From: Rickettsiales bacterium | GTDB taxonomy: Bacteria; Pseudomonadota; Alphaproteobacteria; Rickettsiales; Deianiraeaceae | Direction: 5' to 3' | Length of the DNA: 48,998 nt | Assembly: GCA_016735445.1 (NCBI GenBank) | Contig: JAERRN010000013.1 | Span: forward strand, 1 to 48,998 | Part shown: piece by piece, positions 36,700-37,768 of the stretch | Position numbering within the stretch: the stretch's first letter is position 1 | How the letters are laid out: each line of letters starts with the position of its first letter | Notes under the pieces: generated by a model | Told to the model about the DNA's origin: nothing | The model's input: the letters and a program-made list of their open reading frames with translations, nothing else | The model's database searches: none | Program-made: the position numbers and the translations under genes

Positions 36700-37368
36700 A
36701 TGGCAGCGCCTAGTTTTGAAGAAAAATTAAACAGCTTTGGCAAGTCTCTTGAAGACACGGGGAAGCATGTAAACGCCGGTAAGGCGGTTAGTAACGTCTT
36801 AAACGTAAAACCTGAAGCGTTCGCCAATGAAGTCCTTACAATAATGAATAATTTTAGCATTCCAAATTTAACGCATTTAAAGCTACAAAAACTTTTATAT
36901 TACTGTTACGCAATAATTACAATAAAACTTGGTAAAGTGCTGTTTTTACCAAACGATAAGGATGGTGCTAAAAATATTAATTTTTTGCAATTGGGACCAG
37001 TTATTACGCCTGTTTATTATAATTTTAGACATTTTGGCAATAAGCATCTTCTTGAGCATTTTGTTAACTATAAACAAATACTGCTTAAAGAAAATATTTC
37101 TGAAGATTACCACTCTACATTAAAAATATTAAACTTGGAAGAACTTGATGACGAACTGATGGCTGAGATAAGAAACTCAATAGTGTACACCATTGCAAAG
37201 ATTGGAAAAAAAAACTTGGAAGAGCTTACAGATGTATCGCGTAGATTAAAGTCTGCTTGGCATACTTTTTATGAGTTAAAAAAATGCAACGCTGATAATG
37301 GAATTATTATACAAAAGATTTTGGAAGAAGTTAAAGGACTAAAATATTTTAATAAAGTAACTAAATAA
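36700..37368 (+). CDS. DUF4065 / Panacea-domain protein (SocA/GepA-like phage-associated protein); candidate antitoxin
   Basis: 222 aa. Domain signature: LTHLKLQKLLYYCYAI...LFLP...FLQLGPVITPVYYNFRHFG, and later IGKKNLEELTDVSRRLKSAW. The family consensus is lKLqKLLYy...f.AW.yGPV...vY..fk.yg ... s..eL...tH.e.pW. Confidence 0.8.
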   Translation: MAAPSFEEKLNSFGKSLEDTGKHVNAGKAVSNVLNVKPEAFANEVLTIMNNFSIPNLTHLKLQKLLYYCYAIITIKLGKVLFLPNDKDGAKNINFLQLGPVITPVYYNFRHFGNKHLLEHFVNYKQILLKENISEDYHSTLKILNLEELDDELMAEIRNSIVYTIAKIGKKNLEELTDVSRRLKSAWHTFYELKKCNADNGIIIQKILEEVKGLKYFNKVTK

Positions 37369-37375
37369 GTTTCCT

Positions 37376-37768
37376 ATGTCAAATAAAAAATCCAATCAAA
37401 ATATTGATCTTATTTCCGACATTCAGTTTGCTGTTGGTACTCCAAGTGATATCGAAAGCAAAACTAAAGCATACGTAGAAGCGTTTTTAAATAGCGATGA
37501 AGGCAAAATTATACTAGAAAAGCTTTTAAGAAAGCACTCTTATGCTGCGTTAGAAGAAATAAAAGAAGCGAGAGAAGAAGTTGGTAAAGCAGAAAGAAAA
37601 GTTAACATTACAGAAAGAAAAATACACTCTCTATCTATAGCTCTTACTTTTATATCTGGCATAACTGTTAGCGTGTTAATTGCTTACTTTGTTTTACATA
37701 GAAGCTTTTTTGGCTGTAAAATAAAAATCCTTGAGCAACAAATTGAACAAAAATGCACAAAACAATAA
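37376..37768 (+). CDS. Hypothetical coiled-coil protein with one C-terminal TM helix; candidate partner (toxin/effector) of the Panacea-domain gene
   Basis: 130-aa ORF starting 7 nt after the upstream stop on the same strand. It has a charged helical segment (LEEIKEAREEVGKAERKVNITERK) and then the TM helix LSIALTFISGITVSVLIAYFVL. I recognise no family. Confidence 0.55.
   Translation: MSNKKSNQNIDLISDIQFAVGTPSDIESKTKAYVEAFLNSDEGKIILEKLLRKHSYAALEEIKEAREEVGKAERKVNITERKIHSLSIALTFISGITVSVLIAYFVLHRSFFGCKIKILEQQIEQKCTKQ

Follow-up and report, generated by a model that had tools for sequence, protein, structure and literature searches.

A putative PanA-PanT-type toxin-antitoxin pair with an orphan membrane protein in a Rickettsiales-type genome

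Between lysK and dxs in the 48,998-nt stretch of DNA analysed here (the window), two closely spaced genes, ORF222 and ORF130, are best explained as a putative PanA-PanT-type (type II-like) toxin-antitoxin (TA) pair, a reading to which we assign a probability of roughly one half. It draws on a Panacea domain that four independent comparisons, by profile or pairwise, confirmed along its full length; on the 7-nt gap, two-gene isolation and antitoxin-first order of the locus; on the architecture of ORF130, which is that of validated membrane PanT toxins; on the membrane protein found downstream of four of six inspected Panacea genes; on the intact reading frames and host-like codons of both genes; and on the PanA TA-like loci already recorded in Rickettsia. 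The evidence is laid out below together with the findings that count against this reading and the alternatives to it.

Gene anatomy and coding quality

ORF222, the panA-like gene (positions 36700-37368, plus strand, 222 aa), is followed on the same strand by ORF130, the candidate PanT-type membrane toxin gene (37376-37768, plus strand, 130 aa), after an intergenic gap of 7 nt (37369-37375, plus strand) that was read directly as GTTTCCT. The first-pass annotation had given the coordinates, lengths, shared strand and gap of the two ORFs exactly, and its picture of a compact, tightly spaced, antitoxin-first pair between lysK and dxs was borne out. The pair is flanked by two opposite-strand housekeeping genes, lysK (class-I LysRS; 34720-36357, minus strand; PF01921, E-value 3e-104) and dxs (encoding Dxs; 38107-39924, minus strand; PF13292, PF02779 and PF02780), and ORF222 and ORF130 form a unit of exactly two genes set apart from the neighbouring operons. 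No Shine-Dalgarno-like motif was visible in the 7-nt gap. Co-transcription of the two genes is likely, judging by validated relatives (PMC8832971).

The pair is separated from lysK by a divergent spacer of 342 bp (36358-36699, 25% GC), the presumed promoter region, and from dxs by a convergent spacer of 338 bp (37769-38106, 25% GC). These spacers of about 340 bp had been taken as the boundaries of an island; spacers of 100-550 bp are, however, common across the window and the length is an ordinary one in this genome. Promoter and terminator scans of such 25% GC spacers were uninformative, consensus matches in AT-rich DNA being no evidence for a function, and nothing resembling an intrinsic terminator turned up in the ORF130-dxs spacer. 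Two repeats were observed in the spacers. One, a possible operator, is an imperfect inverted repeat (36634-36675) whose 15-nt arms (36634-36648 and 36661-36675) are 80% complementary and separated by 12 nt; it occupies the stretch 25-66 nt before the start of ORF222 and adjoins a promoter-like site at 36672-36701. The spacer between ORF130 and dxs contains a 17-nt direct repeat (37891-37907 and 38007-38023; 16/17 identical, 116 nt apart), which may be a chance occurrence in AT-rich DNA.

Codon-usage log-odds, trained on 16 confidently annotated genes of the window, were 0.28 bits per codon for ORF222 and 0.42 bits per codon for ORF130, compared with 0.28-0.49 for the 16 housekeeping genes. The annotated frame was the best of six for each of the two, while shadow ORFs of like length scored from -0.10 to 0.23 bits per codon and were beaten by the frame of the true gene. 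Since their log-odds fall in the housekeeping range and their frames are the best available, ORF222 and ORF130 look like real genes of host-adapted composition; both are intact, and their codons are host-like.

Panacea homology and the membrane partner

The assignment of ORF222 to the Panacea (DUF4065) domain was evaluated with profile and pairwise comparisons. PF13274 (SocA_Panacea) was aligned over its full length (profile positions 1-113 of 113) at an E-value of 0.0078 and 17.6 bits, which does not reach its gathering score of 25.7. NCBIfam NF047745 (SocA_antitoxin) matched at 2.2e-11 and 43.8 bits, with an equivalog cut-off of 190 bits; phrog_1281 and phrog_10390 of the PHROG collection matched at 9e-13 and 2.4e-12, respectively; BLASTP against the annotated PanA of Escherichia phage PhiR47_1 gave 1e-8; and hhalign against a profile of six annotated Panacea proteins gave 98.3% (E-value 2.1e-14) over residues 32-196, the whole domain. 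Furthermore, tblastn searches of plasmids and phages with ORF222 returned weak matches, all of them under SocA-domain, DUF4065, GepA or PanA annotations. A profile check had been proposed for this domain, and NCBIfam, PHROG and hhalign each returned significant whole-domain homology; the DUF4065 signature reported at first sight thus reflects real Panacea homology, but to call it clear overstated the case for a sequence this divergent, which scores under Pfam's own threshold. ORF222 is a genuine Panacea protein of unusual divergence.

The domain lies at residues ~32-196 (nt ~36793-37287), flanked by extensions of ~31 aa at the N-terminus and ~26 aa at the C-terminus and interrupted by a mid-domain insertion. 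ORF222 keeps LQKLLYY, GPV, FG and the C-terminal W, and in the TH...PW motif the H and P, both invariant in the small six-sequence Panacea sample, are replaced by R and A. These replacements, along with the score below Pfam gathering, count against the PanA-PanT reading; ORF222 also illustrates the extent of drift that a Panacea domain can undergo, to below the Pfam threshold, with its core motifs retained. No relative of ORF222 was found in a 5.8-billion-cluster database even at E<=10, the query alone being returned, and PDB sequence searches with ORF222 and ORF130 yielded nothing meaningful. The single-sequence AlphaFold model of ORF222 (pLDDT 42.7) was too poor for fold comparison.

ORF130 has one strong predicted TM helix at residues 86-107 (nt 37631-37696; Kyte-Doolittle 19-residue mean 2.25), preceded by a charged segment (residues 1-85, with charged helices at 23-85) and followed by a basic tail with two Cys (residues 108-130). 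Its single-sequence AlphaFold model (pLDDT 73.6) is disordered over residues 1-22 and then has two helices, the first at 23-38 and the second, a long one, at 41-128. Of the earlier description of ORF130, the charged N-terminal region, the single TM helix and the absence of a family all stand, but the coiled coil is doubtful, its heptad periodicity being marginal (reached by 3% of shuffles for residues 46-85 and by 15% for residues 41-85). ORF130 had no match in Pfam, NCBIfam, PADLOC or PHROGs; no homologue was found in the 5.8-billion-cluster database (the query alone); exhaustive phmmer against 1.84 billion representative proteins returned ORF130 itself and nothing else at E<=0.001; and tblastn against plasmids and phages returned nothing. 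A Foldseek search of the PDB with the ORF130 model found no match below an E-value of 4, as expected for a single long helix. By these searches ORF130 is an ORFan.

A mechanism can be proposed by analogy with validated relatives, from which toxicity, membrane depolarisation and neutralisation by complex formation would all be expected of the pair (PMC8832971). ORF130 would be a small membrane protein anchored by its tail, with its ~85-residue N-terminus in the cytoplasm; when free, its C-terminal TM helix would insert into the inner membrane, oligomerise there and dissipate the membrane potential. ORF222 would be translated first from the shared transcript and would bind ORF130 directly, probably at the cytoplasmic N-terminal helices, so that the toxin is held inactive.

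It is also possible, though we think it rather unlikely, that the two genes are coincidental neighbours: ORF222 would then be a solitary Panacea/GepA-like protein with another role or no current one, and ORF130 an unrelated small membrane protein specific to the lineage, say of the envelope or for host interaction, which shares a transcript with ORF222 by chance and has no TA link. Small charged TM proteins are common orphan genes in endosymbiont genomes, which counts against the PanA-PanT reading, and coincidence is likewise favoured by the ORFan status of ORF130, its lack of similarity to any toxin family, and the presence of other orphan ORFs close by (32489-33472 and 33778-34416). Neither protein has a detectable relative beyond the domain level in which a conserved pairing might be seen. 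The survey of Kurata et al. 2022 bears on the same question: about half of its 2,281 DUF4065 proteins were in conserved two-gene TA-like loci, the remainder lying outside such loci, and 9 of the 25 pairs tested were validated in E. coli whereas 16 were not (PMC8832971). Together with the want of homologues close enough to show a conserved pairing, these proportions weigh against reading ORF222-ORF130 as a PanA-PanT pair. What speaks against coincidence is the 7-nt spacing, the presence of exactly two genes between opposite-strand housekeeping genes, as would fit a TA pair, and the match of ORF130 in architecture to the validated membrane PanTs.

Genomic context and mobility

The window (~32% GC) encodes PNPase, RNase E, FtsK, UvrD, GyrA, AlaRS and other housekeeping proteins together with a VirB2-type pilin and scattered gene-transfer-agent-like genes, a content that points to an alphaproteobacterium of Rickettsiales type. 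The nearest sequences to LysK are 47-55% identical; those from the genome collection belong to Rickettsiales and Deianiraeaceae MAGs, and those from metagenome contigs carry no organism label. At the nearest LysK-bearing loci of the genome and metagenome collections, neither dxs nor the pair was found beside lysK, a result that among relatives this distant fits insertion as well as ancestry. Apart from the window, the pair was found on a single contig (Logan SRR13427717), to which 6.4 kb align at 100% identity, with no polymorphism for a comparative or selection test to draw on.

Several other genes of the window were recorded. The phage/gene-transfer-agent-like genes (6269-7705, minus strand; 22330-22986, plus strand; 23064-23906, plus strand), which comprise large terminase, DUF2460 and BR0599/baseplate hub genes, occur singly amid housekeeping genes, and RcGTA-like genes in alphaproteobacteria are likewise scattered. 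The TrbC/VirB2-type pilin gene (15722-16243, minus strand; PF04956, 1e-8) stands alone beside ftsK, which is consistent with the dispersal of type IV secretion genes in Rickettsiales. Directly downstream of a pyruvate dehydrogenase E1-alpha-like gene, a 327-aa ORF (32489-33472, plus strand) has no Pfam family at E<=1 and a codon usage of 0.24 bits per codon, somewhat under the housekeeping range. A 212-aa ORF (33778-34416, minus strand) also lacks a Pfam family; about one-third of its length derives from a tandem array (33845-34018) of a 48-nt repeat with a 24-nt sub-unit that is translated into RSSDSRP(F/S) peptide repeats, and tandem-repeat proteins of a similar kind are typical of certain intracellular bacteria. 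The alanyl-tRNA synthetase ORF (44720-48556, minus strand) is 1278 aa long, about 400 aa longer than the typical bacterial enzyme, and its match to the Pfam catalytic domain is split into three stretches, suggestive of large insertions.

Fragments of mobile elements do lie near the pair, as had been noted. The 1.67-kb gap between dxs and gyrA (39925-41595) holds a 71-aa N-terminal fragment of an IS1595 transposase (40208-40423; tblastn, 2e-16) and a 56-aa fragment of a D12 N6-adenine methyltransferase (41002-41172; Pfam, 1.2e-9), situated 2.4-3.4 kb from the pair, both of them decayed mobile or restriction-modification remnants. The suggestion drawn from them, that the pair was acquired on mobile DNA, did not hold up: composition and codons are host-like, no flanking repeats were found around the pair, and dxs lies between it and the IS and methylase fragments. 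Recent acquisition is accordingly not supported, and ancient acquisition is possible. A compositionally distinct island was rejected on GC, codon usage and the absence of flanking repeats.

The phage-like matches of ORF222 raise the further alternative that the locus is a degraded prophage or mobile-element relic, composed of a GepA-like gene and a holin-like membrane protein and either kept by drift or serving as an abortive-infection or defence module. Consistent with this are the phrog_1281 and phrog_10390 matches, the many tblastn matches of ORF222 in phage genomes, the position of the DUF4065 gene of Streptococcus phage P9 after holin-endolysin genes, and the IS1595 and methyltransferase fragments nearby. 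Yet no other phage gene adjoins the pair, flanking repeats are absent, both ORFs are intact with host-like GC and codons, ORF130 has neither a PHROG nor a PADLOC match, and dxs intervenes before the fragments; we give this alternative very little weight. Models of PADLOC-DB 2.0 gave no match to ORF222 or ORF130 at E<=1, which leaves the proposed role in phage defence without a counterpart among these systems, and the assignment of the pair to a defence system was rejected on this ground.

If functional, ORF222-ORF130 would be a candidate TA pair still intact in a Rickettsiales-like lineage that is almost unsampled and in which TA modules are usually lost to genome reduction. A more far-reaching proposal, which we hold to be improbable, is that a new family of membrane toxins neutralised by Panacea proteins, with no detectable relatives in sequence, begins with ORF130, and that the pair stays intact and codon-adapted because it has been repurposed in a deep-branching, apparently host-associated Rickettsiales-like lineage, for instance as a symbiont-stabilising addiction module or as a regulated membrane or host-interaction factor, and is not selfish baggage.

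Comparison with known Panacea systems

The in-silico criteria of Kurata et al. 2022 for PanAT loci are a gap of <=100 nt, an architecture conserved in >=2 species and an operon of not more than three genes. For ORF222-ORF130, the gap is 7 nt and the opposite-strand lysK and dxs place the pair outside any operon of more than three genes, in line with two of the three; as for conservation in at least two species, what is missing is the relatives themselves, not a pairing that was observed to be lost. The order of the genes is the commoner one, with 943 antitoxin-first PanAT loci compared with 325 of the opposite order (PMC8832971). Furthermore, among six Panacea genes chosen by hand from the tblastn matches of ORF222, four had an adjacent downstream membrane protein; among the four are the annotated PanA-PanT of an E. 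coli phage, with a gap of 22 nt, and a pair from an Akkermansia plasmid.

Three of the validated PanT toxins are membrane depolarisers, namely E. coli T3, Bartonella apis T12 and Helicobacter T4; in T3 and T12 the N-terminal region is charged and TM segments lie in the C-terminal part, and in T4 an N-terminus resembling a coiled coil is combined with TM helices at the C-terminus (PMC8832971). In the T3 (E. coli STEC O31/phage PhiR47_1), T12 and T4 loci, as in the pair, the Panacea gene comes first and its partner follows on the same strand a few nucleotides on, and the partners share with ORF130 a small size, a charged or helical N-terminus, one or more C-terminal TM helices and a two-gene locus. 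ORF130 has this membrane PanT architecture, although the comparison with T12 and T4 is by description. In sequence, neither phmmer nor BLASTP against the T3-type PanT places ORF130 in a known PanT cluster, and its lack of similarity to the E. coli phage PanT in the latter comparison (E-value 0.38) counts against the PanA-PanT reading. The two systems also differ in their TM helices, of which ORF130 has one and the E. coli phage PanT two, both C-terminal, and in the Panacea protein, the 222-aa ORF222 having N- and C-terminal extensions, a mid-domain insertion and a score under the Pfam threshold, whereas the phage PanA is 157 aa long.

Among the best tblastn matches of ORF222 is the SocA-domain protein WP_102748994.1 of Akkermansia muciniphila plasmid pJ30893, whose partner WP_102748993.1 (109 aa) starts 4 nt after it and is built like ORF130, with a charged N-terminal end and a TM segment towards the C-terminus. 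The similarity between ORF130 and WP_102748993.1 was not significant (E-value 0.25), a further point against the PanA-PanT reading, and the Akkermansia pair, itself uncharacterised, lies on a plasmid beside an integrase, unlike ORF222-ORF130.

Caulobacter SocA-SocB, a type VI TA system, has the Panacea domain in common with ORF222, and SocA_antitoxin is the best NCBIfam and curated-family match of ORF222, which is the argument for a SocAB-like type VI arrangement in which the Panacea protein would be a proteolytic adaptor that hands its partner to ClpXP, with no sequestration. Caulobacter SocA is a ClpXP adaptor for SocB, and SocB, a soluble inhibitor, has the sliding clamp DnaN as its binding target. 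ORF130, in contrast, is a TM protein without a family match and is not SocB-like, and the 43.8 bits of ORF222 are far under the equivalog cut-off of 190. Moreover, the validated PanA proteins bind their toxins in stable complexes (PMC8832971, Fig. 2 legend). We therefore regard a SocAB-like arrangement as highly unlikely, and a ClpXP adaptor mechanism is not indicated for ORF222.

The PanA-PanT reading also has a precedent closer to the present lineage. Rickettsia carries PanA in loci with ParE/YoeB-type toxins (cluster T48, Dataset S1; PMC8832971); there, as here, the Panacea antitoxin comes first and the genomes are of Rickettsiales, but the T48 partner is a ParE-superfamily protein and not a TM protein like ORF130. 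Set against the known systems, the pair is not novel in kind, as had been proposed for it, since partners of Panacea antitoxins with a charged N-terminus and a C-terminal TM region have already been validated (PMC8832971), and only the sequence of ORF130 is new. No new concept is needed for Panacea antitoxins with small membrane toxins; if functional, ORF130 would add one more sequence-unrelated toxin partner to those of the 'hyperpromiscuous' Panacea antitoxin domain, and the pair offers a compact candidate for a toxicity-rescue assay.
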